The notes beneath the pieces were generated by a model. It made no database searches and was not told where the DNA came from. It worked only from the letters and a program-made list of their open reading frames with translations. 64,000 nt of DNA from Malacoraja senta (lineage: Eukaryota), in the NCBI GenBank assembly GCA_038087875.1, contig CM075992.1, forward strand, positions 8,062,001-8,126,000. Reading direction: 5' to 3'. Below are positions 20-63,955 of this stretch, piece after piece; the first letter of the stretch is position 1; each line of letters starts with the position of its first letter. Both the position numbers and the translations under genes were made by a program.

Positions 20-176
20 CTGTTATCACCAGCGGGTTGATGTTGAAGGTGTCGTTCGCAGGGATGATGTGGCCCTTCTTGTAAAAACGCTGGCAGAGGT
101 GGAGGCCGGTCTGATTGGCGTCATTCTCAAACACGTAGGCGTAACGTCCCAGAGACATATTTTGCAGAGCCAGGTA
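20..176 (-). CDS. MCOLN1: Mucolipin-1 coding exon 4 (gene continues beyond the left edge)
   Basis: atatag| acceptor, ACAG|gtgagt donor; [52 protein letters not shown], luminal polycystin-mucolipin domain. Confidence 0.95.
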
Positions 177-3912: not shown

Positions 3913-4080
3913 CTGGTTAACTGCGTAGAAAATAGAGTCATAAACATCCCTCTGCTTGTACACGGCATAGTAACCGTCCGATTCCACCGTGTAATCCTTC
4001 AAGAATAGGTGTTTAAATGTCATTGTGTTTTCTTCTGTAAAATCCACCACCATCTGGTTACTCAAGCCGAACAGGATTAA
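3913..4080 (-). CDS. MCOLN1: Mucolipin-1 coding exon 3
   Basis: 168 nt, ttccaacag| acceptor and CAG|gtcggt donor; LILFGLSNQMVVDFTEENTMTFKHLFLKDY...YDSIFYAVNQ. Confidence 0.95.
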
Positions 4081-7260: not shown

Positions 7261-7496
7261 CTGCACTGTGACTGAGATGAGCTTTACGATCTGCACCACC
7301 AGTTTGAAAGGCTTCCGGCCTTTCGCTCGGTACTTGTCACAAGGACTCATGAAGTAGTACTTCAGTTTCCTCTTCATTTCTTCCTCTTGTATGTCCAACG
7401 CAGCTCCAGAAGACACACAGGAGTGCGGAGACACGATGTGGACATGGTCCTGAGAGCCATAGCTGTTGACCGGAGTGAACAGCTTCTCCCGTTCAA
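7261..7496 (-). CDS. MCOLN1: Mucolipin-1 coding exon 2
   Basis: tcttctcttgtcag| acceptor, CAG|gtaagg donor; encodes EREKLFTP...EEEMKRKLKYYFMSPCDKYRAKGRKPFKLVVQIVKLISVTVQ, matching the TRPML1 N-terminus, polybasic region and S1. Confidence 0.95.
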
Positions 7497-22906: not shown

Positions 22907-24012
22907 AGCCAAAAATCTGTAGCCTCCTTGTGCTCTGGTATTTTATTTCATTCTTCACATGTTTAAATTATAATGTTTTATTTTTAATTGTCTACTGTAT
23001 ATCATGTTGTTACTTGAGAGCAACGCACCAAGGCATATTCCTTGTATGTATGTATACATACCTGCCTAATAAAATTTATTCAATTCAATATTTATTCAAA
23101 TTGGATATTCAACTCGAATTGGAACAATGAAATTCTTAATTACAGCAGCACCACAGATATGTAAATGCAGTGCTCCGTGAACACCAGAATAAACAAAAAG
23201 ATCAAAAGATAAAGACAAAACCAAAGCCCCAAGGGTGAGGGTAGAAGATACCCCGTCACCGAAGGGATGGGGGGGGGGGGGGGAGAGATAAGCAGGAAAG
23301 AAGGGACACCAATATCAAAGGGATCATCAAGTCTGCTCCACCATTCAATCATGGCTGATCTATCTCTCCCTCCTAACCCCATTCTCCTGCCTTCTCTGCC
23401 TAAATAGGCAACGTTTAGGGTCGAAACCCTCCTGGTTTCTTCGGACCATTTCATGAATCTATGAAATTCATACTTGCAGCAACACAACAGATTATGTAAA
23501 CACAGTACTCGGTGAACACCATAATAAACAAGATCAATGTATAAAAAGACAACAGACAATACAGGGCTAGGTGAATGCCAGTGCCCCAAGCAAGAGAGAA
23601 GGGACCCCCTCTCACTGAAGGGGAAGTAGGGGGAGAGAAGGGACCCCCTTCATTGAGGGGGAGAGAAGGGACCCCCTTCATTGAGGGGATCAAGTGTTTT
23701 ATTCGAATCTCCCAAAATGAAACGATGAAATTCATACTTGCAGCAGCCTAACAGATAACGTAAATACAGTGTGTAAAAAAGAACTGCAGATGCTGGAAAA
23801 ATCGACGGCAGACAAAAATGCTGGAGAAACTCAACGGGTGAAGCAGCATCTATGGAGCGAAGGAATAGGCGACGTTTCGGGTCGAGACCATTTAAACACA
23901 GTACTCAGTAAAACCCATAATAAACAAGATTAAAGCATAAGGGGACAGAGAACACAGGGCAGAGCCCCCAAAGAATACCAGAGCCCCAGGATGGAGAGAA
24001 GAGACCCCCTTA

Positions 24013-24128
24013 CAGCCTCTACGATGCAGCCACGACCCTCACAGTCCCTACGATGCCGCCACGACCCTCACAGCCCCTACGATGCCGCCACGACCCTCAC
24101 AGCCCCTACGATGCCGCCACGACCCTCA
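24013..24128. repeat. 29-bp minisatellite x4 at the start of MCOLN1 intron 1
   Basis: Unit CAGCCCCTACGATGCCGCCACGACCCTCA starting at 24013, 24042, 24071, 24100. Confidence 0.95.
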
Positions 24129-24129
24129 C

Positions 24130-24154
24130 CTGCGTCGCAGCCGCTCACGGCCAT
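24130..24154 (-). CDS. MCOLN1: Mucolipin-1 (TRPML1) coding exon 1, MAVSGCDA+G
   Basis: Minus strand aacATGGCC...GCAG|gtgagg, 25 nt ending in phase 1, which joins the phase-1 start of the 7261-7496 exon (G+TT=Val); lies in a CpG island with E-boxes and GC boxes. Confidence 0.8.
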
Positions 24155-24224
24155 GTTGTTGCTATCGCTGCCGCCCGGGACAGCTCTCGCCGATGCCGCA
24201 GGCCCTGCCCAGCGTCGCCATGGT

Positions 24225-24450
24225 CCCGTGACCCGGGCCCGTCAATCACACCTCCCTGGGCCCGCCCACATCGACCTGGCGAAGCCGCCGGCACGTGACA
24301 CTGACACGTCAATCATCACAGGCCCCCCCCGCCCCTCACTGACGCCCGGACACGTGACACGGACACGTCAATCATCCCGCGGTCCTGCCCACATTCACCG
24401 ACGACGTCAGGTCGGGGGCGGGGCCATGAGGTGGGGGCGGAGCCATTGGT
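24225..24450 (-). promoter_or_regulatory. MCOLN1 CpG-island promoter with CLEAR-type E-boxes, GC boxes and a CCAAT box
   Basis: CACGTGAC at 24292-24299 and 24351-24358, GGGGCGG at about 24415 and 24434, ATTGG at 24445, GACGTCA at 24403; immediately upstream of exon 1. Confidence 0.75.
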
Positions 24451-24885
24451 CCATCACTACAACAAATAAGATCTGAACCACATACAATATACAATATTTA
24501 TTCATTGTCATTTGAACCTCAAATGAGGCTCAAACGAAACTCTGTTTCTGCAGCCATACAAAAAGAAACAATTTCTACAAGACACACAAACAATTCAATT
24601 TACACAAACATCCATCACAGTGAATCTCCTCCTCACTGTGATGGAAGGCAAAGTCTTTTTCTCTCCCCTGTGTTCCATTTTTTCTCCCGGTGTTAAAGTC
24701 CCAGGCGGGCGATGGTAAGTCCACATAGACAGGTTTGGAGGGATATCAAGTTCAAGTTCAAGTGAGTTTATTGTCATGTGTCCCTGATAGGACAATGAAA
24801 TTCTTGCTTTGCTGCTCGACTCTACATCCCACCCCAGGCAGACGTCCGCCTGGCACTGGAGGAGCTGCACGCCGTGGATATGGTT

Positions 24886-25110
24886 GTTCAAGAAGGAACT
24901 GCAGATGCTGGAAAATAGAAGGTAGATAAAAAGTGCTGGAGAAACTCAGCGGGTGAGGCAGCATCTATGGAGCGAAGGAAATAGGCAACGTTTCGGGCCG
25001 AAACCGGGTCCTGGGGTCTGAAGAAGGGTTTCGGCCCGAAACGTTGCCTATTTCCTTCGCTTCATAGATGCTGCCGCACCCGCTGAGTCTCTCCAGCACT
25101 TTTGTCTACC
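24886..25110. mobile_element. Inverted Penelope pLTR insertion between the two promoters
   Basis: Opposed pLTR halves with hammerhead core at about 25018. Confidence 0.8.
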
Positions 25111-25229
25111 TTGGAGGGATATGGACCAAGTGCACGCAAGGGGGACTGGTGTAGCTGGGACATTGTTGGCCGGTGTGGGCAAGTTGCGTCGAAGGGCCAG
25201 TTTCCACACTGTATCACTCTTTGAGTCTA

Positions 25230-25662
25230 TATCCCTTGATTCCTCTAGCCCGAAGAGCTAAATCTAACTCTCTTGAAAACATCCAGTGAATCGGCCTCCA
25301 CTGTTCTGTGGCAGAGAATTCCACAGATTCACAACTCTCAGGGTGAAGACGTTTTTCCTTATCTCAGTCCTAAATGGTCAACCCCTTATTCTTAAACTGT
25401 GACCCCTGGCTCTGCACTCCCCCAACGTCGGGAACATTTTTCCTGCATCTAACCTGTCCAATCCTTTAATAATTTTATATGTTTCTGTAAGATCCCCTCG
25501 CATCCTTCTAAATGCCAGTGAATACAAGCCCAGTCGACCCATTCTTTCATCGTATGTCAGTCCCGCCATCCCGGGAATTAACCTGGTGAACCTATGCTGC
25601 ACTCCCCCAATAGCAATAATGCCCATCCTCAAATTAGGAGACCAAAATTGCATACAATACTC
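25230..25662 (-). mobile_element. CR1 LINE 3' fragment
   Basis: EYCMQFWSPNLR...RFTRLIPGMAGL...RGHSLRIRG. Confidence 0.85.
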
Positions 25663-25979
25663 CTGATTTGTCGTCTCATTGCATGCAGTACACAGTAGGA
25701 GGGATGTGATCACACTGGAGAGGGTGCAGAGGAGATTCACCAGGATGTCCCCTGGGGTGGAGGAGCTCAGTGAAAAGTGACCGGGTCCTGGGGGATGAGT
25801 GGAGTACAGGGTCCCGGAGGAGATGCTAACCGGAACGGGTCCCAGGGGCAAAAGATGAAAGGGGGTCCAGAGTCCGGTGGAAGATGCGATTGGGAGGAGG
25901 TGGTCAGGGGTCTGGAGCCCTGCCCCCTGACCAAAGCCCAGCCCCATGTGACCCTGGCCACAATAGGAGTCTCGCCCCC

Positions 25980-26312
25980 TAGCAGGGACCTGCCACATGA
26001 CCCACTCCGCCTAGCCCAATGGCCCCGCCCCCTAAAGCTCCTCCCACAACCCGAGGCCACGCCCCGGGTCTCACGTAACCCCACTCGCCCCGCCTCATGG
26101 CCCCGCCCCTGTCCCTACTCCGCCCCGCCTCTTGGCCCCGCCCCTGGCCTCATGACCCCGGCTCCCTGAGCTCCTCCCACAACCGGAGGTCCCACCCCTT
26201 CTCCTCCCCCTCCCCCTCCAGTGCGCACGCGCGAGCCTGCTGATTAAAGACGCCGCTGTCAGAGCCGAGGCCTAAAGCCGCCAGCGCCAGCCCGTGGACA
26301 AGACAGCTCCAG
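25980..26312 (+). promoter_or_regulatory. Probable promoter and non-coding first exon of the LRRC8 gene
   Basis: GC-rich island with multiple CCGCCC boxes, CCAAT, NRF1-like GTGCGCACGCGC (26221-26232), candidate donors CCAG|gtagag (26312) and CCG|gtgagc (about 26450); the downstream LRRC8 exon begins with an acceptor and so needs an upstream exon. Confidence 0.55.
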
Positions 26313-30328: not shown

Positions 30329-31157
30329 TAACCAGGTTTGCACTTGGGAGGTGGGTGGAGAGCTGCAATGGTGAGTATTGTTTCTGGGCTATGAGGTGTT
30401 ATCTTCAATGGTTAGTGTCCTGCATTAGATGACAGGGGTAGGGCTGTTCTAAAGGTTTAATTCTGCTTTGACTTTGGACCTCAGAGTCACAGCACAGAAA
30501 TAGGCCCTTCAGCCCAACAAGTCTGCGCAGACCAGCGTTCACCTCACACACTAACACTATCCTACACACTAGGGACAATTTACAATTTTACCTAAACCGA
30601 TTAACCTACAAACTTGCACGTCTTTGGAATGTGGGAGGAAACCAGAGCACCCGGAGAAAACCCACACGGTCACAGGGAGAACGTATAAACTCCGTGCAGA
30701 CAACACCCGTAGTCCGGATCGAACCCGGGTCTCTGGCGCTGTAAAGCAGCAACTCCATTGCTGCGCCACTGTGCCACCTTTTGAGCTTGTTTGCACCTTC
30801 ATTGGTGAATATACTGGGTTACATTGGTGGCATTCAAGGAGTTTAGTAGAGATGCAGCGTGAAAACAGGCCCTTCAGCCCACCGAATCCACAATGACCAA
30901 CGATCACCCGTACACTAGTTCTATCCTATGCATTAGCGACAATTTACAGAGGCCAATTAACCTGCAAACCCACACGACTTTGGAGTGTGGGAGGAAACCG
31001 GAGCAAATGTACAAACTCCGTATAGACAGCATCTGTAGTCAGGATCGATCCTGGTCTCTGGCGCTGTAAGGCAGTAACTCTACCGCTGTGCCACTGTGGG
31101 GAGTGGAGGGAAAAAGTGTTTCTTCCTGCTAAATGTTCCCACTTTTGTTTTGCAGAC

Positions 31158-33665
31158 ATGATCACTCTGACAGAGCTTGCCACTCTCTCGGAGAGTCAGC
31201 CCACTCATCGACTACTCAAACCCTGGTGGGATGTTCTGATGGACTACTTTGTGGTGATTATGTTGATGGTGTCCCTCTTGTCAGCCACCTTGCTCATTTC
31301 CAACGACAAAGTTGCGTGTTTACCTTGCAACAACGTGCACAGTCTGAACACCTCGTCGAGGTGCGACCCACCTAAAACAGCATCACTGCCTCGCAAGCCG
31401 CAATCTTCCACAGAGAGGGCGCAAGTCGACCAAATCAGTCCCAGTTCCTCAGGAAGAGCTGGAGAACCTTTAGGTGACAACCAAGTGAAACCATTGTCTC
31501 CAGCCCAGGAACGAAGAGTAGGAGGTCATAAAACAAACTTGGATTACCAGCAGTATGTTTACATCAGTCAGGTTTGTTACCAGAAGGCCTTGCCGTGGTA
31601 TTCCAAGTACTTTCCTTATGTGGCCCTAGTCCACTCCATTATCCTGATGATCAGTGGTAATTTCTGGTTCAAGTTCCCAAAAACCTCCTCCAAGGTGGAA
31701 CATTTTGTCTCCATTCTGGGCAAGTGTTTTGAGTCGCCTTGGACCACCAAAGCAGTTTCTGAGACCGCCAACGAAGACTCCGAAAACAGCCAGCATCGGA
31801 CTAAAATGTTCAAGTCGGTGACCCTGGAGCCCAGTGAGAACTCTGATACCTGCTCCTCACTCACCTCCTGCCCCGAAGTGACCTTTGAGCCTCCTGTCAC
31901 CGGATCGCCGTCGATGAACATCCTGGATAAGCAGGATGGCGAGCAGGCCAAGGCTCTCTTTGAGAAGGTCCGCAGGTTCCGGGCCCACACCGAGGATGGA
32001 GACCTGATCTACAAGTTCTACGTTGGTCAGACAGTTGTAAAGGCTATAAAATTCATGATCATCCTGAGCTACACATTTACCTTTGTCGACTCCATCAATT
32101 TCGAACATATCTGCAAGCCCAAGATAAAAAACGTGACTGGCTATGCTGTTTTCTTCTGCACTCATAGTATGGCCTACATGCTGCAGAAGCTCCTCATCAC
32201 CTACATTGTTCTCATTGCGCTCTACGGATTGGTTTGTCTCTACACACTGTTCTGGCTGTTCCGAGGCTCTCTGAAAGAATATTCCTTTGAGAAGGTTCGT
32301 GAGGAGAGCAACTTCAGTGACATTCCCGATGTGAAGAACGACTTTGCCTTTTTGTTGCACATGGTGGACCAATATGACCAGCTCTACTCCAAGAGGTTCG
32401 CCATTTTCCTGTCCGAAGGTTGCGAGAACAAACTGCTGGAGATGAACCTGAACCACGAGTGGACCTATGAGAAGCTGAGGCAGCATGTGTCCAAAAACAG
32501 CCAAGGGAAGCTCGAACTGCAGCTCTTCATGTTGTCTGGAATCCCAAAGGCCGTCTTTGACATGAGCGACCTGGAGGTGCTGAAGCTGGAGCTGGTTCCT
32601 GATGTCAAGCTGCCAGCTAAAATGTCCCAGATGGCAGCACTGAAGGAGCTCTATCTTTACCATTGCCCTGCAAAGGTCGATCAGATTGCCTTCAACTTCC
32701 TCAGAGATCACCTTCACATCTTGCATGTCAAATTCACCGATATTGGCGAGATCCCTCTGTGGGTGTACTCCCTCAAAAACCTGGTGGAGTTGCACCTTTC
32801 TGGCAATCTGAATTCCGAAACCAACAAGGCCATTGGACTGGAGTCCCTGAAGGAGCTCAGGCATCTCAAAATACTTATCCTGAAGAGCAATCTCTCGAAA
32901 ATCCCCTCCAATGTCATGGAACTTGCCACTCACTTGTCCAGGTTGGTCATTCAGAATGACGGCACAAAGTTACTGGTGCTCAATAATCTGAAGAAGTTAG
33001 CCACTCTCTCCGAGCTGGAGCTGCAGAACTGTGAGCTTGAGAGAATCCCACATGCAATATTCAGCCTTGCAAACCTACAGAAAATAGACCTGAAGTCCAA
33101 CAACATTCAAACCATTGAGGAGATTGTCAGTTTCCAGCACCTCAAGAGGCTGTCATGCCTCAAACTTTGGCACAACTCCATTCTTTCCATCCCAACGACC
33201 ATCAGTCTTATCAAAAACCTTGAGCAGCTTTTCTTAAACAACAACAAACTGGAGTCCTTGCCCAGTGCTTTGTTCACCCTTAGAAAGCTGAGGCACTTGG
33301 ACTTAAGCCACAATCTGCTCACAATTGTCCCGCCAGACTTTCAGTTACTCCAGAACCTGCAGCATTTCTCCATCACCAAAAACAAGGTGGAGATCTTGTC
33401 TGTTCAACTCTTCCAGTGCCTAAAGCTGAAGACTTTACATCTGGGGCAAAACTGCATCACTTGCATCCCCCCTGAGATTGGACAGTTGACACAACTCACT
33501 TACCTGGAGCTGAAAGGGAACCACTTGGAGAGACTTCCCGCTGAGATTGGCCACTGCTTGCTACTGAAGAAGGCCAATCTCATTGTTGAGGATATCTTGT
33601 TTGATCGTCTCCCCCTGGATGTGAAAGATAATCTCGCCGAACAAGACTTTATATCTGTTGTTTAA
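31158..33665 (+). CDS. LRRC8D: Volume-regulated anion channel subunit, LRRC8D-like (835 aa, single coding exon); probably a paralogue rather than the strict orthologue
   Basis: LKPWWD motif, four TM segments, KTNLDYQQY, YSKYFPY, DIPDVKNDFAFLLHMVDQYDQLYSKRF, C-terminal LRR array; acceptor ttttgcag|AC ATG places the start at 31158, not the GTG at 31116. Confidence 0.93.
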   Translation: MITLTELATLSESQPTHRLLKPWWDVLMDYFVVIMLMVSLLSATLLISNDKVACLPCNNVHSLNTSSRCDPPKTASLPRKPQSSTERAQVDQISPSSSGRAGEPLGDNQVKPLSPAQERRVGGHKTNLDYQQYVYISQVCYQKALPWYSKYFPYVALVHSIILMISGNFWFKFPKTSSKVEHFVSILGKCFESPWTTKAVSETANEDSENSQHRTKMFKSVTLEPSENSDTCSSLTSCPEVTFEPPVTGSPSMNILDKQDGEQAKALFEKVRRFRAHTEDGDLIYKFYVGQTVVKAIKFMIILSYTFTFVDSINFEHICKPKIKNVTGYAVFFCTHSMAYMLQKLLITYIVLIALYGLVCLYTLFWLFRGSLKEYSFEKVREESNFSDIPDVKNDFAFLLHMVDQYDQLYSKRFAIFLSEGCENKLLEMNLNHEWTYEKLRQHVSKNSQGKLELQLFMLSGIPKAVFDMSDLEVLKLELVPDVKLPAKMSQMAALKELYLYHCPAKVDQIAFNFLRDHLHILHVKFTDIGEIPLWVYSLKNLVELHLSGNLNSETNKAIGLESLKELRHLKILILKSNLSKIPSNVMELATHLSRLVIQNDGTKLLVLNNLKKLATLSELELQNCELERIPHAIFSLANLQKIDLKSNNIQTIEEIVSFQHLKRLSCLKLWHNSILSIPTTISLIKNLEQLFLNNNKLESLPSALFTLRKLRHLDLSHNLLTIVPPDFQLLQNLQHFSITKNKVEILSVQLFQCLKLKTLHLGQNCITCIPPEIGQLTQLTYLELKGNHLERLPAEIGHCLLLKKANLIVEDILFDRLPLDVKDNLAEQDFISVV

Positions 33666-36600
33666 TTTGTCTCCACTTCGTTGTTGTGGGGGAATTTCTA
33701 TACTTGAATCAATTACCAAGTGCTGCGAATCTTGGAAGATTTTGTAACTTGTTTAAAATTCACTAGAAAGAGTGTCCCAGAGTAAAAAAGCTCCACTGGT
33801 TTGGAAAAGAAACCTTGCAAATTCCAGGGACCAAAATATATTACAGATGCTGGAAATCTGAAATAAAACGCTGGAAATAGACTGGAACCCAGGATCATTG
33901 ACATTGTTTCTCTCTCCTCAGTTGCTCTCTGATCTGATATGTCCTTTTGGCATTTTCTGGGTTATTATTCATTCTGTTATTTAAATGTTTCAAAGCTAAA
34001 ACTTTGTAAAGGCCACTGGTTATGTGCAACAGGCAGTACTAACTGAGGTCTGGGGTGATGTATACCATAGGTACAGGGCCAACAGTGTGTGTTTGACCTC
34101 AAGAAGCACATATCTGGGGGAGGAAGAAGGGGGGGGGGTTGCGGGGTGGGAAGAGGGGTTCTGATTTATTCACCAGAGTAAGGGAAAATCTAGTTGCCTC
34201 CGTTCAAAGTGGCAATAGAGAGAAAGGCACAATGTACAAGTAAGAAATCTATAACACAGGGAATAGTCTCTCCTCACAGGATGACTGCAATTGATTAAAG
34301 CGTTTCAAAAAGCAAAGGACTATAGATCAGGAAATAAAAATAGAAAATGCTAGAAATGTGCACACATGTACTTATAGTCACACACACGTGTGCAAGCATA
34401 GCTATGTCTTAATGTGAGTGGCATTTGTGGAGAGGGAAACACAGAATTACTGTTCCAGGTTGATGGCTCCCAAGAGGTCATCCTTACAAATTCTTAATCA
34501 TTTCTATCTCTGCAGATCATCCTTGACTTAATATTTCCAGCATTTTGTTTTAATTTCCGGTTTCCAATATCTGTGGTATTTCCTTTTCTGAACCATGCTG
34601 TCTGCTTCTCCATTATGTGCACCTTCTCTCTGTTTTGCTCTCACGTTTTCCACATCCTCTGTTCTGCATGGTGTGTCTTGCTTTCCCTGGTCTACACTCT
34701 TATACGTACACTGTTCTTTCACTCCTGTACTCCCTTTCGCACTCTCACCATTTTGTGACCTGTAACCTTCAGAAAAGTATTTAGTATTGAAAACCAGAAA
34801 CTGCTGACAAGACCCTACTTGCAGGGAAAGAATGAGCAAACTGTTGTGTATTGGCGTAATCCTCTTATCAGAACTGGAAGGTATTTGAAGGGTAATAGAC
34901 CACTCTAAAGAACAATAATGTACAAATTGAACCTGCCTTGTTTCAACTTGCAGTAGTTTGTTTAATGTCTCCCTTCAGGGTCAGGGGAGCTGTTTCATTG
35001 CTGCAGAACACACATGATTTCTGATTCATCCAGAGGGGAATGGTTGTTGTATTGCACCCTCAGTTTCATTGTTTCAAAATAGTTTTTCGGTGAACATTTT
35101 CATGAAGATGTGTAGGAAGGAACTGCAGATGCTGGTTTAAACCGAAGATTGATCTAAAAAGCTGGAGTACCTTTCTCTCCAGCATCTCTGGACAGAAGGA
35201 ATGGGTGTTTTGGATCGAGAAGGGGCTCGACCCAAAACCTACCCGCTGAGTTACTCCAGCTTTTTGTGTCTACTTTCATGATGAAAACGATCCTTTAAGT
35301 TTGAAAGAGTCATTGGCAGATGAGTATTGTACAGTTACTATTTGAATGAAATAATTGAGATTGGCCATCTAATTATAATGGTCTGTCTGCGACAAAACTC
35401 TGATTAAACTAATTAAGCAAAAAATCATCAATGGAATGGAACAAATGTACAACAAATAGTCCAGGGCAGGACGAGCTATTCTAATTATGTTCTAGGGTAA
35501 CATGAAATCAATGATGATGGAGGCAATCTTTCTATAATTTCAAGCAGTGTTTAGCATTGAGAGATTCTCAGAATCAGTTTGAGATTGAAGACCAAATGAA
35601 GTTATCTGGATTTCAATCTTTTTATTTGCAACTAATCACACTGAGACCTACCATAAACAAAGATAAGGGGAAGAATCTGTTTCACCAGCAGACCTGCTGT
35701 GGCCAGGGTATTTGTCTCATCATCGGTAGATTTTTAAATGCTCATCATCTGTATGTGATTTTTATCTGGAAATAAATTTGAAGTAGAATTTAGCCTTGAT
35801 TTTGTGTTCAGAAAGAGCATTATTTTGTGTGTTTAACTGCGACCAGGGTTAGAGGGCCATGGAGGGTTAAACACAGAATACTTAGTTTAGAGATACAGTG
35901 TGGAAACAGGCCCTTCAGCCCACCATGTCCACGTTGACCAGCGATCCCTGTACACTAGATCTATCCTACACCATGGGGACAATTAATAATTTTTTTTACT
36001 GGAGCCAATTAATCTATAAACTTGTATGTCTTTGGCATGTGGGAGGAAAGCGGAGCAGCCGGAGAAAACCCCTGCAGTCACAGGGAGAACGTATGAACTC
36101 CATAGACAGCACCCATGGTCAGGATCGAAGCCAGGTCTCTGGCGCTGTAAGGCAGCAACTCTACCACTGTGCTGCCAGAATGTTCATGCAGTTGGAAGAA
36201 GGAATGGGTTCAGGAAAGGCAAAAGGATGCTGAGAGCATGGGAAAGAATATGTGAATTATAAACAATGTCCAACATTTAAGAGTGTAGCAGCGAGCAAGG
36301 TTAAAGTACAAAAAGTAGAAGTCTAAAGGAAAGCCACTTATCTGAATGCATCAAGGACTGGTAACTTAGATGGTTACTACTTGTGAGATGGATGGTACGG
36401 ATAGAGATAAATGGGTATCATCTGCTCGCCATTGCAGACATAATTGCACGGTGATGAAGACTGGGAATATTATTATTCCACACATTTCAGGAGTGTAAAC
36501 AAAATAGAAAAGGCAGGGTATCTCTAATAATGAAAATATTAAGACTAAATGAAAACTTAGTGTAATTGTACAAAGGACATGTTTGATGGTTGTCCACGGC

Positions 36601-39180
36601 CTCCTGACTGACTACCATTGGATGATGTTTATATCAAGAAATAAAATAGATCTTTAACACAAGTAAAGTATGGCTCACCCACAAATATTCATGTTTAAGA
36701 AAGAACTGCAGATGCTGGAAAGTCTAACCACAAATAATCATGGATGACTAATCATCAGATTAGATAAATCATGTTAGCAAAGTTATCCCTGGACAGTTGA
36801 AACATTGATGAGATGACACATAGGCCCAACAATGGAAAAGAATGGTAAAATCATACTGGAGACCACAGCTTTAACGTGAGAGGGTCAATGCTTAAAGATG
36901 TGCAGGGCAAGTTTTTTAATGCAAAGATGGTGGTGAGTGCCTGGAATGCCCTGCTGATGTTGGTGGTTGGGGCAGATGTGATAGTGGTGTTTAAGAGACA
37001 TTTGGATAGGTATATGGATATGCAGGGAATGGAGGGATCTAGATTATGTGCAGGCAGATAAGAGTTGGTCTTGGCATCATGTCCAGCAGAGATTGTGGCC
37101 CAAAGGGCTTGATCAGGTGCTGTACTTCCAAGTTATTTCAAATCTGGTCATGTATAATGAGAAAGGTTTCATGGATAATTTCAAAAAGGGAATCTTAAGA
37201 GTAGTACAGTGGTTAGTTCCAGTGATCCAGGTTAGATCCTGTGGTAAGACCTGTCAATGTGGAGTTTGCATATGTTACTATTTCTATGATTCTATTTAAC
37301 ATGGTAGACCTTCACATTCAGTTTTGGGAGCACCAACTTTGGGTTGAAATCAACTAAGACTTTAAATAGTCACTATTATCAAGGTGAGGTTGAGTGAATT
37401 GGTGAAAGTGAACTTGGAAATTAGATTAAAAGATGTGTTGTGACGGACGTTCAATGATGGAATAGAGTAGTTTTTTCTGACCTGGCTGGATTGGGTAGAA
37501 TAACTTGGTTTGGCCTGGCTTTTGCATTAAATATTGTGTGGGTTGGCCTAACCTGGAAGTGTAGTATGGAGTGCATTTGATCTGAGCTCAACTGGGAGGG
37601 TAAAACAGGATGTATCTTTTCTGGCATGGGTGTGTGGAGTGGGATAGGTTTGGCCTGAATGGGGGGAACTGCACCCAGGGTTCTGAGTTAGCTGTTGATA
37701 TTATGGAGGCATTAATAGTGATCTTTCAGAAATCACTAGTCAGGAGTGGTCCCAGAGGACTGGAAAATGGCAAATGTTACTCCGCTGTTCAAGAAGGGAG
37801 TGAAGCAAAAGGAAAACAATAGGCTGGTTAGCCCGACTTCAGTGGTCGGTAAGATTTTAGAGTCCATTGAACAACATCAGCTGTTCTCACAAAGGCCTTG
37901 CATGATATCGGACAAATGAATGTAAGATATGCAAAAAGGTAACAATGATAAAGGAAACAGGCCATTAGCTGTTTGCTAGGTGAGAACTAGAAGCTGGTGT
38001 GACTTGGGTGGGGGGGGGGGGGTGGAATGTGACTGATGATCAACAGGAGGGAGATTGTGGAACCAATCTTGACATTTATCAATGTCTAACTTATTTTGCC
38101 GACATCCATATTATCTACATCATGTGGGATCCTCTTTACATTCTGGTCGCTGCTCACATTCCTCCCCAGATTTGTCATTCGCAAACTTAGAAACATTAAA
38201 TCAGTCAGCTCATCCAAATTAATATGAATAGCTGGAGTCCAAAAGATGATCTCTGGTTTCTCACTCTTAATTGCCTGTTACCTCAAAAAAATCCATTTAA
38301 CCAGTTTTCTATCTGTCCAGCACTTCTGAATCCATTCTAATGTAAGATCCCACTGCTTTAATTTTTCTCAGTGCCATCTATTGAAGTTTGGATTGAGTGA
38401 AGGGGGCCGAGACATGCCCAAGTTGGGTTGGGCCAGTGTTGTGACACTGTTCCAGTGTCTGGGTTGTTCTGGGCCAAAGTTGTGGTGGGGGCTAGGTCAA
38501 GTGGCAGGGGCCTGTGATGTGATGTGCCGGGTGGAAGGGGGCCGAGTCTGGGCCAATATTGTGATGGGCTGGGCAGGACCTGGGTTGGTTTGGGCCAGGT
38601 CAGATGCTGGGGTTGCCAGATATGTTGTTCTTGGCTGGGCTGGATAGAGGGGTTTGGGTTTGTCTGGGCCTGAGTTATTTTGGGTTGGTCTGGTTTGGAC
38701 TTGGTCTGAATTGTTCTGGATTGAGTGCAGGGAGCCGGGACTGGATTGGGCTGAGCCTATCTGGGTTGGGTTGTGGGCCGGGTCTGGATTGTTGTGGGTC
38801 AGGCTGTAGTGGGCCGGGTCTGGGTTTGGGCGGGTTGTGGTGGGCTTGGTTGCTATGGGTGGGTGTGGGCTGGGTCTAGGTAGTAGTGGGCTGGGTCTGG
38901 GTTGTAGTGGTCTGGGTTGTTGTGGGCCAAGTCTGGGTTGTTGTGGGCCAGGTCTGGGTTATAGTGGGCCAGGTTGTTGTTATGGGCCGGGCTGTTGTTG
39001 TTATGGGCCAGGTCTGGGTTGTTGTGGGCTGGGTTGTTGTTGTTGTTGTTGTGGGACAGGTTGTTGTTGTGGGTCAGGTCTGGGTTGTTGTGGGTTGGGT
39101 CATGGTTGCTGTGGGCCAGGTTGTTGTTGTAGTGGTGGGCCAGGTTGTTGTTGTTGGGGGCCAGGTCTGGGTTGTGTGCC

Positions 39181-39474
39181 GGGCTGTTGTTGATGTTGTG
39201 GGCCGGGCTGTTGTTGATGTTGTGGGCCGGGCTGTTGTTGATGTTGTGGGCCGGGCTGTTGTTGATGTTGTGGGCCGGGCTGTTGTTGATGTTGTGGGCC
39301 GGGCTGTTGTTGATGTTGTGGGCCGGGCTGTTGTTGATGTTGTGGGCCGGGCTGTTGTTGATGTTGTGGGCCGGGCTGTTGTTGATGTTGTGGGCCGGGC
39401 TGTTGTTGATGTTGTGGGCCGGGCTGTTGTTGATGTTGTGGGCCGGGCTGTTGTTGATGTTGTGGGCCGGGCTG
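39181..39474. repeat. Perfect 24-bp tandem repeat x12 upstream of MAP2K7
   Basis: Unit GGGCTGTTGTTGATGTTGTGGGCC, 12 identical copies 39181-39468 plus a partial unit; degenerate relatives extend left to about 38400. Confidence 0.97.
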
Positions 39475-40260
39475 ACCCGGGCCGTTCCACGCTGCGCCGC
39501 GCGGGGGCGGGGCGGTTGCCGGGCTGCCCGCGCCTGCGCGCTCCCTCTGCATCCCGCGCTAAGATGGCGGCCTTCTCCTTGGAGCAGAAGTTGTCGCGCC
39601 TGGAAGCCAAGCTGAAACAGGAGAACCGCGAGGCGCGGCGCCGGATCGACCTCTCCCTCGACATGAGCTCGCCTTCCAGCCCGAGGAGACCCCGACCAAG
39701 TAAGCGAGCGGCGCCGGGCTGCGGCGAGGGGGGAGGGGGGTGTGTGGGCCCAGTGCCCGCGGGCACCATCAGCCCCTCACTGCCCTGACAACGGAAACCC
39801 GGCCGCGTCACCGCTGTGGGCTGGACCCGCCCTGACGGACAGCCGCCCCGACCAATCACAGCGGCTGCCGGCCGGCGGGACCCCCGTACTTCCGCCTCCC
39901 GGGCCAATCACAGCGGCCCGTGGGCGGGACGTCCTTCCGACCGGCGCTGGGACGAGCCAGGGGTGGAAAAGTTGTTCAATTTCCCCTCTTACCGCCCTCT
40001 GCGGCGGATAATGGGGGCAGAAGCCACCGTTAGCTCCCTTCGCCACGGTCTTTGGTGGTCTGGGGGGTGGGCGGGCCGTAGTTGAGGGATGTGTCCCTGA
40101 CTGACAGCGGCGGCGGCCAATGGGATCAACCGGCCGCCTGTCACCAAGGAGACGTGGCCAATGGTTTGCCGCGTGCGGCGTTTCCGGTGGGCGGGACCAT
40201 GGCGGCCCCGCACTGCCCGGGCCTTGTGGCCTGTTTATTTATAAACACCCACCGCCGGGC
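39475..40260 (+). promoter_or_regulatory. MAP2K7 CpG island / promoter
   Basis: Dense CpG, GC box GGGGCGGGGC at about 39504, YY1-type AAGATGGCGG over the ATG (39561-39570), CCAAT boxes in intron 1. Confidence 0.75.
39564..39699 (+). CDS. MAP2K7: MKK7 coding exon 1
   Basis: MAAFSLEQKLSRLEAKLKQENREARRRIDLSLDMSSPSSPRRPRP, donor A|gtaagc (phase 1). Confidence 0.96.
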
Positions 40261-45262: not shown

Positions 45263-45870
45263 TAGAAACATAGAAAATAGGTGCAGGAGGAGGCCATTCG
45301 GCCCTTTGAGCCAGCACCACCATTCATTGTGATCATGGCTGATCGTCCCCTATCAATAACCCGTGCCTGCCTTCTCCCCATATCCCTTGACTCCACTAGC
45401 CCCTAGAGCTCTATCTAACTCTCTCTTAAATCCATCCAGTGACTTGGCCTCCACTGCCCTCTGTGGCAGGGAATTCCACAAATTCACAACTCTCTGGGCG
45501 AAAACATTTTTTCTCAGCTCAGTCTTAAATGACCTCCCCTTTATTCTAAGACTGTGGCCCCTGGTTCTGGACTCGCCCAACATTGGGAACATTTTTCCTG
45601 CATCTAGCTTGTCCAGTCCTTTTATAATTTTATATGTTTCTATAAGATCCCCCCTCATCCTTCTAAACTCCAGTGAATACAAGCCTAGTCTTTTCAATCT
45701 TTTCTCATATGACAGTCCCGCCATCCCAGGGATCAATCTCGTGAACCTACGCTGCACTGTCTCAATCACAAGGATGTCCTTCCTCAAATTAGGAGACCAA
45801 AACTGTACGAAATACTCCAGATGTGGTCTCACCAGAGCCCTATACAACTGCAGAAGAACCCTATACAACT
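45263..45870 (-). mobile_element. CR1 (HER1-like) LINE 3' fragment
   Basis: ORF 45353-45901 CR1 ORF2 C-terminus and TTTCTA-type tail. Confidence 0.9.
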
Positions 45871-46651
45871 GCACTTGCTCTGTGTGATAATGCATTGGCA
45901 AAGGAGAGAAATATGTTAGTAAGATAATATGTTATAAAAGACATTGAATGGGACTCATCCTCAGATGTTGAAGTGAAAGTTTTGGGTTTGACTGTAATTA
46001 TAATTTATAATAATCAAAGTGGTGTACTTTCTAACTATTTGAAACTTTAATTGTTCAAACTGATTTTGTGAATGGTGACCCGAAACATCACCCATTCCTT
46101 CTCTCCAGAGATGCTGCCTGTCCCGCTGAGTTACTCCAGCATTTTGTGTCTATCTTCGGTTTAAACCAGTATCTGCAGTTCCTTCCAACACAGTTATATT
46201 GTTTGTTTTGCTTCGGATTCTGACAAACCTTTCGGTAAATCATCTCTTTATCCAAACTAAATCTAGCTCTTGGTCTCGGAATGGAATTGTAAGCTCAGGA
46301 TCTCTTTGTTCTGAATTATCATTCTTTGTTTAAGAAGAACAATTGGTATTTATGCATATCTTGTCTCTTATAAATTTCTGTCAGATGTTAATTTGAGTTC
46401 TAATGGCAATAATAAACGTATTTCAAATGCCCCATTGTGTTATCAGTCTCCCTTGCCAAGAAAAATATATTTGAGGTCTTAAGCAAAGCAGTAAATGCTG
46501 GAGGAACTCAGTGGGTCAGGCAACATCTGTGGATGGAATGGACAGATGACGTTTTGAGTTGGAACCAAACACAGAATCTGAAGAAGGATCCCAACCTGAA
46601 ACATCATCTGTCCTTTCTCTCCACAAGACATGCCTGACCCCTTGAGTTCGC

Positions 46652-59052: not shown

Positions 59053-59191
59053 CTCTTCAGCTTCCATTAGCAAATGATGCTGGCAGCCGATCATCTTCAT
59101 CAGAAACCTCGCCTCAGCATCACCCGCCCCCTTCACGTCCTCGGCACATGCTCAGCCTCCCACAACCGCTGCTGCAGAAAAGCATGGAAAG
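59053..59191 (+). CDS. MAP2K7: MKK7 coding exon 3
   Basis: ttgttttcag| acceptor, AG|gtaag donor; LQLPLANDAGSRSSSSETSPQHHPPPSRPRHMLSLPQPLLQKSME. Confidence 0.95.
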
Positions 59192-61807: not shown

Positions 61808-61874
61808 CATGGAGATTGAGCAGAAGCTGCAAGAGATTATGAAACAAACTGGGTACCTGACAATAGGAGGCCAG
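61808..61874 (+). CDS. MAP2K7: MKK7 coding exon 4 (gene continues beyond the right edge)
   Basis: 67 nt, tttttacag| acceptor, CAG|gtaag donor; MEIEQKLQEIMKQTGYLTIGGQ. Confidence 0.95.
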
Positions 61875-63069: not shown

Positions 63070-63649
63070 ATAGTTTCTTTAGATTAGCCGTTAATTTTTT
63101 TAAACACCTCCCAATTATTCTGCCATGTAACTGTATTCAGGGGAACCCCAATTATTCTACGATACGATATGTCATCCCTGGAGTGAAATTCCAGTGACTT
63201 TAGTCATCCCTGGAGTGAAATTTGTCTGCCATTTAACTGTCTGTAATCAGTGGAATACATGGCTAGTCTAAAGAACCTGGCCATATTGCCTAATCCTTTT
63301 CGCCCCTGGAGTATTCAGGTGAATCTGTACTGCATCGCAGTGACAATGTATCTCCCTGAGGTGCTTTCCCCTTAATTTATTTTGTTAATTCGGATGGAGT
63401 CTGACCAGAAGTCTAAAAATCTTCGCTACTTCTAACCTTATTGTGTTAAATGCCGTAGTCACATTAGCTTTTGTGATTTTGTACATATGAAATGGAATTT
63501 AGATTTTCCCATTCTTGAATCCAAAAAACTTTTATCAACAATTTTGTGTTTTTTTCATTTTGAAAAATCTTTGATCTGTCTTGCTTCACAAACCTACCCA
63601 TTCATTTCACACCTCTCCTCTCGCTTTGCCCCACCTACTATAATCAGTC

Positions 63650-63955
63650 TGAGAACCAGGGGCCACAGTCTTAGAATAAAGGGGAAGCCATTTAAGGCTG
63701 AGGTAAGAAAAAACTTTTTCACCCAGAGAGTTGTGAATTTGTGGAATTCCCTGCCACAGAGGGCAGTGGAGGCCAAGTCACTGGATGGATTTAAGAGAGA
63801 GTTAGATCGAGCTCTCAGGGCTGGTGGAATCAAGGGATATGAGGAGAAGGCAGGCACGGGTTATTGATTGGGGACGATCAGCCATGATCACAATGAATGG
63901 CGGTGCTGGCTCGAAGGGCCGAATGGCCTCCTGCACCTATTTTCTATGTTTCTAT
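63650..63955 (+). mobile_element. CR1 LINE 3' fragment
   Basis: RTRGHSLRIKG...FFTQRVVNLWNSLP...GTGY* and tail. Confidence 0.88.

Follow-up and report, generated by a model that had tools for sequence, protein, structure and literature searches.

It is generally accepted that VRAC sheds both salts and organic solutes when cells swell, and that LRRC8 subunits other than LRRC8A require LRRC8A. The VRAC literature takes LRRC8A–E as the full set (including PMC6363415 and PMC12182595; additional family sources are PMC5064130 and PMC6679542). Mammals are described with five LRRC8 genes, and finch and chicken with four, without LRRC8E. In the human genome, LRRC8B, LRRC8C, and LRRC8D lie on Chromosome 1 and LRRC8E on Chromosome 19 (PMC12182595, Table 1). 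LRRC8D makes the channel permeable to taurine, inositol, and GABA (PMC6363415), and F143 at its constriction widens the pore (PMC7229184). Teleosts carry two D-type genes per genome, lrrc8da and lrrc8db (PMC6994961).

Here we describe a gene that, judged from its sequence, is a sixth jawed-vertebrate LRRC8 paralogue, which we call D2. It was found in a 64-kb window (the whole stretch of DNA analyzed) from the skate Malacoraja senta. Of the described systems, LRRC8D (PDB 6m04, 9dx7) is the most similar, sharing the domain layout, ∼64% identity, a long first extracellular loop, and an aromatic filter residue; given this identity to a solved protein, the fold of D2 is clear. However, LRRC8D belongs to a separate clade and lies on a separate chromosome, and relative to bat LRRC8D the N terminus plus TM1 of D2 is 54% identical and the intracellular loop only 27%. 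A cysteine at position 57 and an N64 sequon also distinguish D2 from LRRC8D. LRRC8E shares with D2 its neighborhood, is its tandem partner in caecilian and rattlesnake gene models, and is on one chromosome with it in sharks and lungfish, yet it is only ∼49% identical (48%–49% to shark LRRC8E over the whole length) and has a leucine filter and a short loop. The teleost pair resembles LRRC8D plus D2 in number; unlike D2, both of its members fall inside canonical LRRC8D.

An intact D-type gene between MCOLN1 and MAP2K7

The D2 gene occupies positions 31158..33665 on the plus strand as a single coding exon of 835 aa, identified by its ORF, by Pfam and PDB matches, and by phylogenetic trees. The reading frame is uninterrupted throughout, whereas 50 shufflings of the window's bases gave no stop-free run above 276 aa. 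Pfam PF12534 (Pannexin_like) covers residues 1–364 with its full profile (E 6e-138), LRR families were also matched, and full-length PDB alignments agree with the family layout of a four-TM pannexin-like pore domain and, C-terminal to it, an LRR domain. The top PDB structure is LRRC8D (1189 bits), ahead of LRRC8A (957) and LRRC8C (908). The 46 PDB matches did not include an LRRC8E chain, so identity with LRRC8E was assessed by trees. Among the matches listed, the closest relatives are skate proteins (96%–97% identity), and RefSeq gene models of the D2-type protein are present in related skates.

A polypyrimidine tract and AG splice acceptor (31140..31155, plus strand) abut the coding sequence, the AG ending two bases 5′ of the ATG, which implies that the coding part is one exon preceded by one or more noncoding exons. 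A candidate promoter and first noncoding exon (26016..26312, plus strand) can be proposed from a CCAAT motif, four GC boxes, and a splice donor after 26312; it includes a palindrome that we take to be NRF1-like. The first AATAAA 3′ of the stop (33862..33867, plus strand) is a candidate polyadenylation signal, one of nine AATAAA/ATTAAA hexamers between the stop and MAP2K7.

On the 3′ side, MAP2K7 is recognized on the plus strand by its exon 3 (61808..61874), which matches MKK7 (PDB 6yg1, E 6e-8), and by exon 2 (59053..59191) and exon 1 (39564..39699), which were placed by reading frame; the three share one open frame. Exon 1 lies in a CpG island 5.9 kb 3′ of the D2 stop. By itself it gave no MKK7 match in PDB and Atlas searches, and it is presumptively assigned to MAP2K7 from the shared frame. 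A GT-rich minisatellite (38773–39474; final 24-bp unit, 12.7 copies, 99% match) abuts this exon upstream and yields spurious repetitive ORFs in several frames.

On the 5′ side, MCOLN1 runs on the minus strand, head to head with D2. Its exon 2 (7261..7496) scores 62.9 bits against Mucolipin-1 versus 52.4 for Mucolipin-3 and 46.5 for Mucolipin-2, and exon 3 (3913..4080) matches Pfam MCLN_ECD (E 1.8e-15). A candidate coding exon 1 of 25 nt (24154..24130, i.e., 24130..24154 in forward coordinates; phase 1) keeps the frame of exon 2, and exons 1–3 are open in a single frame. A probable exon 4 (20..176, minus strand), its ends judged by eye, is presumed to belong to the same gene. The region at candidate exon 1 is CpG-rich (24001–24500), and a candidate promoter/5′ UTR (24155..24450, minus strand) has GC boxes and two E-boxes, which we presume to resemble TFEB CLEAR sites. 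The candidate MCOLN1 and D2 promoters, as read from the sequence, are head to head and ∼1.6 kb apart (24155–26312); with the TFEB-like E-boxes on the MCOLN1 side, co-regulation of the two genes is possible.

The exon matches and the ORF thus confirm what had been claimed at the outset, namely an intact 835-aa frame on the same strand as, and directly upstream of, MAP2K7, next to MCOLN1. D2 is not placed in a B-C-D tandem: it is flanked by MCOLN1 and MAP2K7, and tblastn with eight queries plus an E/C profile found no further LRRC8 sequence in the 64 kb (best E-values outside the ORF, 0.08 and 0.83). The remainder of the window includes many short interspersed repeats, among which ORFs at 1870–2241, 25378–25998, 45353–45895, and 63487–63867 are alike and are presumably decayed LINE reverse-transcriptase ends.

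An old sister clade of canonical LRRC8D

Three trees were built: a FastTree analysis of 81 rows, an IQ-TREE mixture-model analysis of 47 chosen rows, and a bootstrapped tree of 20 rows. Outgroups were few (one coelacanth LRRC8B, a partial carp LRRC8A, an unnamed A-like protein, and hagfish or lamprey rows). All three trees agree in placing the window protein in a clade, D2, that is sister to canonical LRRC8D. Shark, ray, chimaera, coelacanth, and amphibian members are present in every tree; the two larger ones add lungfish, perch, and bowfin, the latter two on long branches. The canonical clade includes a second shark/ray copy. Support in the 20-row tree is 100/99 for D2, 100/100 for canonical LRRC8D, and 100/100 for the two together to the exclusion of LRRC8A, LRRC8B, LRRC8C, and LRRC8E; the corresponding SH-aLRT values in the 47-row tree are 95, 99, and 99. 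The proposal that the gene is an extra D-type paralogue is borne out by these trees and by AU tests. Teleost lrrc8da and lrrc8db, suggested as a comparison, turned out not to be its counterparts, as both nest in canonical LRRC8D in the FastTree and IQ-TREE analyses.

The AU tests, of groupings picked after the first trees were known, reject a duplication confined to cartilaginous fishes (p 7e-46) and one confined to bony vertebrates (p 3e-5). Based on the sequences at hand, the D2 paralogue almost certainly predates the shark/bony-fish split. A rattlesnake fragment joins D2 with moderate support (94/91) on a long branch, and its grouping with LRRC8D is rejected (p 0.001). Overall, D2 is fast-evolving in ray-finned fishes and the snake, and branches are long in frog, perch, bowfin, and gar.

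At least 13 of the 120 listed matches (of 1132) are nearer to D2-type references than to canonical LRRC8D: nine cartilaginous-fish clusters (79%–97% identical), coelacanth, axolotl, caecilian, and one unnamed protein. Mammals and birds are not represented among these 13, drawn from the best 120 of 1132 matches, and D2 was apparently lost in mammals. Both LRRC8D and D2 are present in at least 11 species (Heterodontus, Mustelus, Heptranchias, Callorhinchus, Rhinoraja, Pristis, two Mobula, Latimeria, Ambystoma, and Lepisosteus). The lineage specificity implied by the original prediction does not hold, given that D2 also occurs in coelacanth, lungfish, amphibians, ray-finned fishes, and a snake.

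When a shark LRRC8E was used as the query, at least seven of the 120 listed matches (of 1145) were shark-type LRRC8E, all from sharks, and the four batoid rows and the one chimaera row were LRRC8C. No batoid or chimaera LRRC8E was among these matches, which are cluster representatives (120 of 1145) in which a fast-evolving copy could rank lower. Because a batoid LRRC8E would be expected near the top of this list, it is fairly likely, from the sequences compared, that LRRC8E has been lost in batoids. The reciprocal loss that had been proposed therefore needs to be narrowed: sharks retain LRRC8E, so cartilaginous fishes as a whole and mammals did not lose opposite members of the pair, and only batoids seem to be without it among the matches listed.

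Two further groups of sequences deserve mention. Carpet sharks carry a third D-type gene (P0127, P0399–P0404) on chromosomes of 42–67 Mb; it is 44% identical to the window protein, has isoleucine at the filter position, and falls on a long branch as sister to LRRC8D plus D2 in the 81-row and 47-row trees. It may date from the first genome duplication. Divergent newt and frog LRRC8 proteins (P0131, P0133) fall outside LRRC8A–E in the FastTree analysis, which could mean either an additional lineage or an artifact of long branches; the divergent Discoglossus protein and the LRRC8D of that species (P0068) are on sequences of equal size.

Protein features and likely function

The residue at the pore constriction, Y130 (codon at 31545..31547, plus strand; placed by alignments, with numbering after PMC12182595, Table 1), aligns with F143 of human LRRC8D, R103 of LRRC8A, and a leucine of LRRC8C and LRRC8E. 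Of the 18 full-length D2 rows, 16 have Y or F at this position, or 17 of 19 once the snake fragment is included. All seven LRRC8D rows also have Y or F, LRRC8C/E rows have L, and LRRC8A/B rows have R. The chimaera Callorhinchus protein (P0011) has proline there. Tyrosine is not a D2 novelty: 5 of 7 canonical LRRC8D rows also have it, including most non-mammalian ones. The first extracellular loop spans 77 residues between markers in D2, within the range of LRRC8D (62–93) and above that of LRRC8C/E (42–53), so that D2 has both D-type hallmarks, the aromatic constriction residue and the long loop. The original prediction had read the motifs of this protein as those of LRRC8D rather than LRRC8C/E; they do mark the D-type group, but they do not separate LRRC8D from D2.

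Four extracellular cysteines (C54, C140, C319, and C334) align across LRRC8A–E rows and presumably pair as disulfides. The additional cysteine 57 is present in all 11 cartilaginous-fish D2 proteins checked besides the query, in none of three LRRC8D rows, and also in LRRC8A and LRRC8B rows. Batoid D2 proteins have a further cysteine near position 69, and the N64 sequon is conserved in D2. The variable intracellular loop is 82%–97% identical among elasmobranch D2 proteins and only 25%–35% identical to canonical LRRC8D; in chimeras, this loop affected assembly, permeability, and rectification (PMC6028502). Across the N terminus and TM1, identity to LRRC8D is ∼50%.

By analogy with the family, D2 would serve VRAC as an accessory subunit and would require LRRC8A. 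Its aromatic filter would make the pore wide, as in LRRC8D, and admit taurine, inositol, and related osmolytes in regulatory volume decrease, and its own N terminus and intracellular loop may tune gating. With Y130 at the filter, A/D2 channels should pass organic osmolytes, a prediction from alignment that we consider probable. The divergence of the loop and of the N terminus/TM1, together with the extra extracellular cysteine, may be signs of a distinct role. It could be argued instead that D2 is redundant or silent and adds nothing of its own to the channel, as its decay elsewhere might suggest (the rattlesnake fragment and the long-branched frog, perch, bowfin, and gar sequences). However, D2 is intact here, is well conserved across the nine cartilaginous-fish clusters among the matches listed, and has an intracellular loop that is conserved within elasmobranchs while being far from that of LRRC8D, and we think such redundancy improbable.

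The E-D2 tandem and its probable origin

Beyond the window, synteny was read from fused gene models and from sequence records of equal size rather than from DNA, and equal size can at most point to a common chromosome and says nothing of adjacency. A fused Microcaecilia model (P0439) comprises LRRC8E (residues 1–802) followed by D2 (866–1674), and a Crotalus model (P0013) comprises LRRC8E followed by a D2 fragment. A Caranx model (P0271) joins LRRC8C to LRRC8D in that order. In an Acipenser (sturgeon) model (P0314), LRRC8E is preceded by a RabGAP-TBC gene and a zinc-finger piece, which we take to be EVI5L and GFI1-like. In all four sharks for which both genes have chromosome-scale records (Heterodontus, Cetorhinus, Heptranchias, and Mustelus), LRRC8E and D2 are on sequences of equal size, and so they are in lungfish; in Rhinatrema they are on different sequences, LRRC8E on one of 131 kb and D2 on one of 45 Mb. 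LRRC8C and LRRC8D are on equal-sized sequences in two Mobula, axolotl, bichir, and coelacanth.

The E-D2 tandem mirrors C-D, and E-D2 is thus most likely a whole-genome-duplication copy of C-D. We propose that LRRC8C and LRRC8D, already in tandem in an ancestor, were duplicated together, giving rise to C-D and to E-D2, the latter beside MAP2K7. The copying event would most likely be the second vertebrate whole-genome duplication, and both the trees and the AU tests place the duplication before the shark/bony-fish split, the age required of a 2R ohnologue. Afterward, sharks, lungfish, and caecilians would have kept both LRRC8E and D2, mammals LRRC8E only, and the skate D2 without LRRC8E at this locus. 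From the sequence comparisons, we consider it probable that D2 is a whole-genome-duplication copy within the E-D2 block. No matching entry was found in the supplementary data searched for two ohnologue studies (PMC13450315, PMC4504502), whose full tables may list these pairs.

One observation fits less well. Coelacanth D2 (P0017) is on a sequence of the same size (172,207,807) as coelacanth LRRC8B, LRRC8C, and LRRC8D (P0020, P0397, and P0457), which conflicts with simple duplication onto another chromosome. It would agree with an ancient but small segmental duplication of C-D on the same chromosome, with D2 moved beside MAP2K7 later and no whole-genome duplication involved, and tandem copies arise readily among LRRC8 genes (PMC12182595). 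Against this, D2 or LRRC8E is on a different sequence from LRRC8C and LRRC8D in sharks, rays, axolotl, lungfish, and bichir, and a chromosome fusion in coelacanth would account for the shared sequence. In addition, the human neighbors are MAP2K7 and EVI5L on the LRRC8E side and EVI5 and MCOLN2/3 on the B-C-D side, so that MCOLN1 and EVI5L-type neighbors have paralogues near human LRRC8B-C-D. A small duplication therefore seems distinctly improbable to us. For the idea of an ohnologue derived from an ancestral cluster of LRRC8C/E plus LRRC8D, as originally put forward, the mirrored tandems speak in favor of the cluster; the duplication mechanism is inferred, and the coelacanth placement still stands apart.

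Duplication of the block also accounts for the locus better than a translocation of the true LRRC8D in cartilaginous fishes, which the top PDB match and the RefSeq name “LRRC8D-like” might suggest. The trees already refute this, and among the AU-tested groupings, orthology with bony LRRC8D is rejected (p 5e-6). Moreover, rays and sharks have a second D-type gene, a canonical LRRC8D on the LRRC8C chromosome; it is 73%–92% identical to bat LRRC8D in four conserved regions, compared with 52%–85% for their D2. We regard translocation as very improbable. There is practically no chance that the gene is a skate LRRC8E converged on or converted by LRRC8D, even though it is the sole LRRC8 in the window and sits directly upstream of MAP2K7 (the human LRRC8E site), because grouping with LRRC8E is rejected (AU p 2e-38), identity to shark LRRC8E is low, the leucine filter of LRRC8E is lacking, and sharks carry D2 and a proper LRRC8E on one chromosome. 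The two outcomes that would have overturned the initial identification, grouping as the true, translocated LRRC8D and grouping with LRRC8E, were both rejected by the AU tests.

Implications for the LRRC8 family

D2 belongs to a known family and is already labeled in databases. UniRef applies the name “si:ch211-106h11.1” to chimaera and coelacanth members, and RefSeq uses “LRRC8D-like”; the UniRef name indicates that automated pipelines already separate D2 from LRRC8D. Literature searches, the broadest of which covered the top-ranked results, listed no paper on the D2 clade. A 2012 family phylogeny by Abascal and Zardoya, outside that coverage, reportedly named an “LRRC8F” of ray-finned fishes, which may be the D2 clade. 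Retention of an ohnologue in sharks and its loss in mammals is a common pattern, which limits the surprise. Automatic labels can nevertheless mislead: “LRRC8D-like” spans three clades, and the shark, lungfish, and bichir proteins that carry the name LRRC8C-like (P0344, P0351, P0442–P0446, P0290, and P0294) are orthologues of LRRC8E.

VRAC of skate hepatocytes is reported to be unusually cation-permeable, with a Pcholine/PCl of 0.55 versus 0.02–0.04 for cations in most cells (PMC6363415). That D2 is behind this permeability is a guess on our part. A broader scenario is that the cartilaginous VRAC kit is larger than the mammalian one (LRRC8D, D2, and the third D-type gene of carpet sharks), that D2 is specialized for organic-osmolyte release in urea- and methylamine-rich animals and so explains the cation and choline permeability of skate hepatocytes, and that batoids and mammals resolved the E-D2 pair in opposite ways; taken as a whole, we think this unlikely. 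D2 is a concrete candidate for the skate hepatocyte phenotype. More generally, a sixth jawed-vertebrate paralogue alters the history of the LRRC8 family, and if C-D was duplicated to give E-D2, the ancestor would have had two wide-pore subunits.
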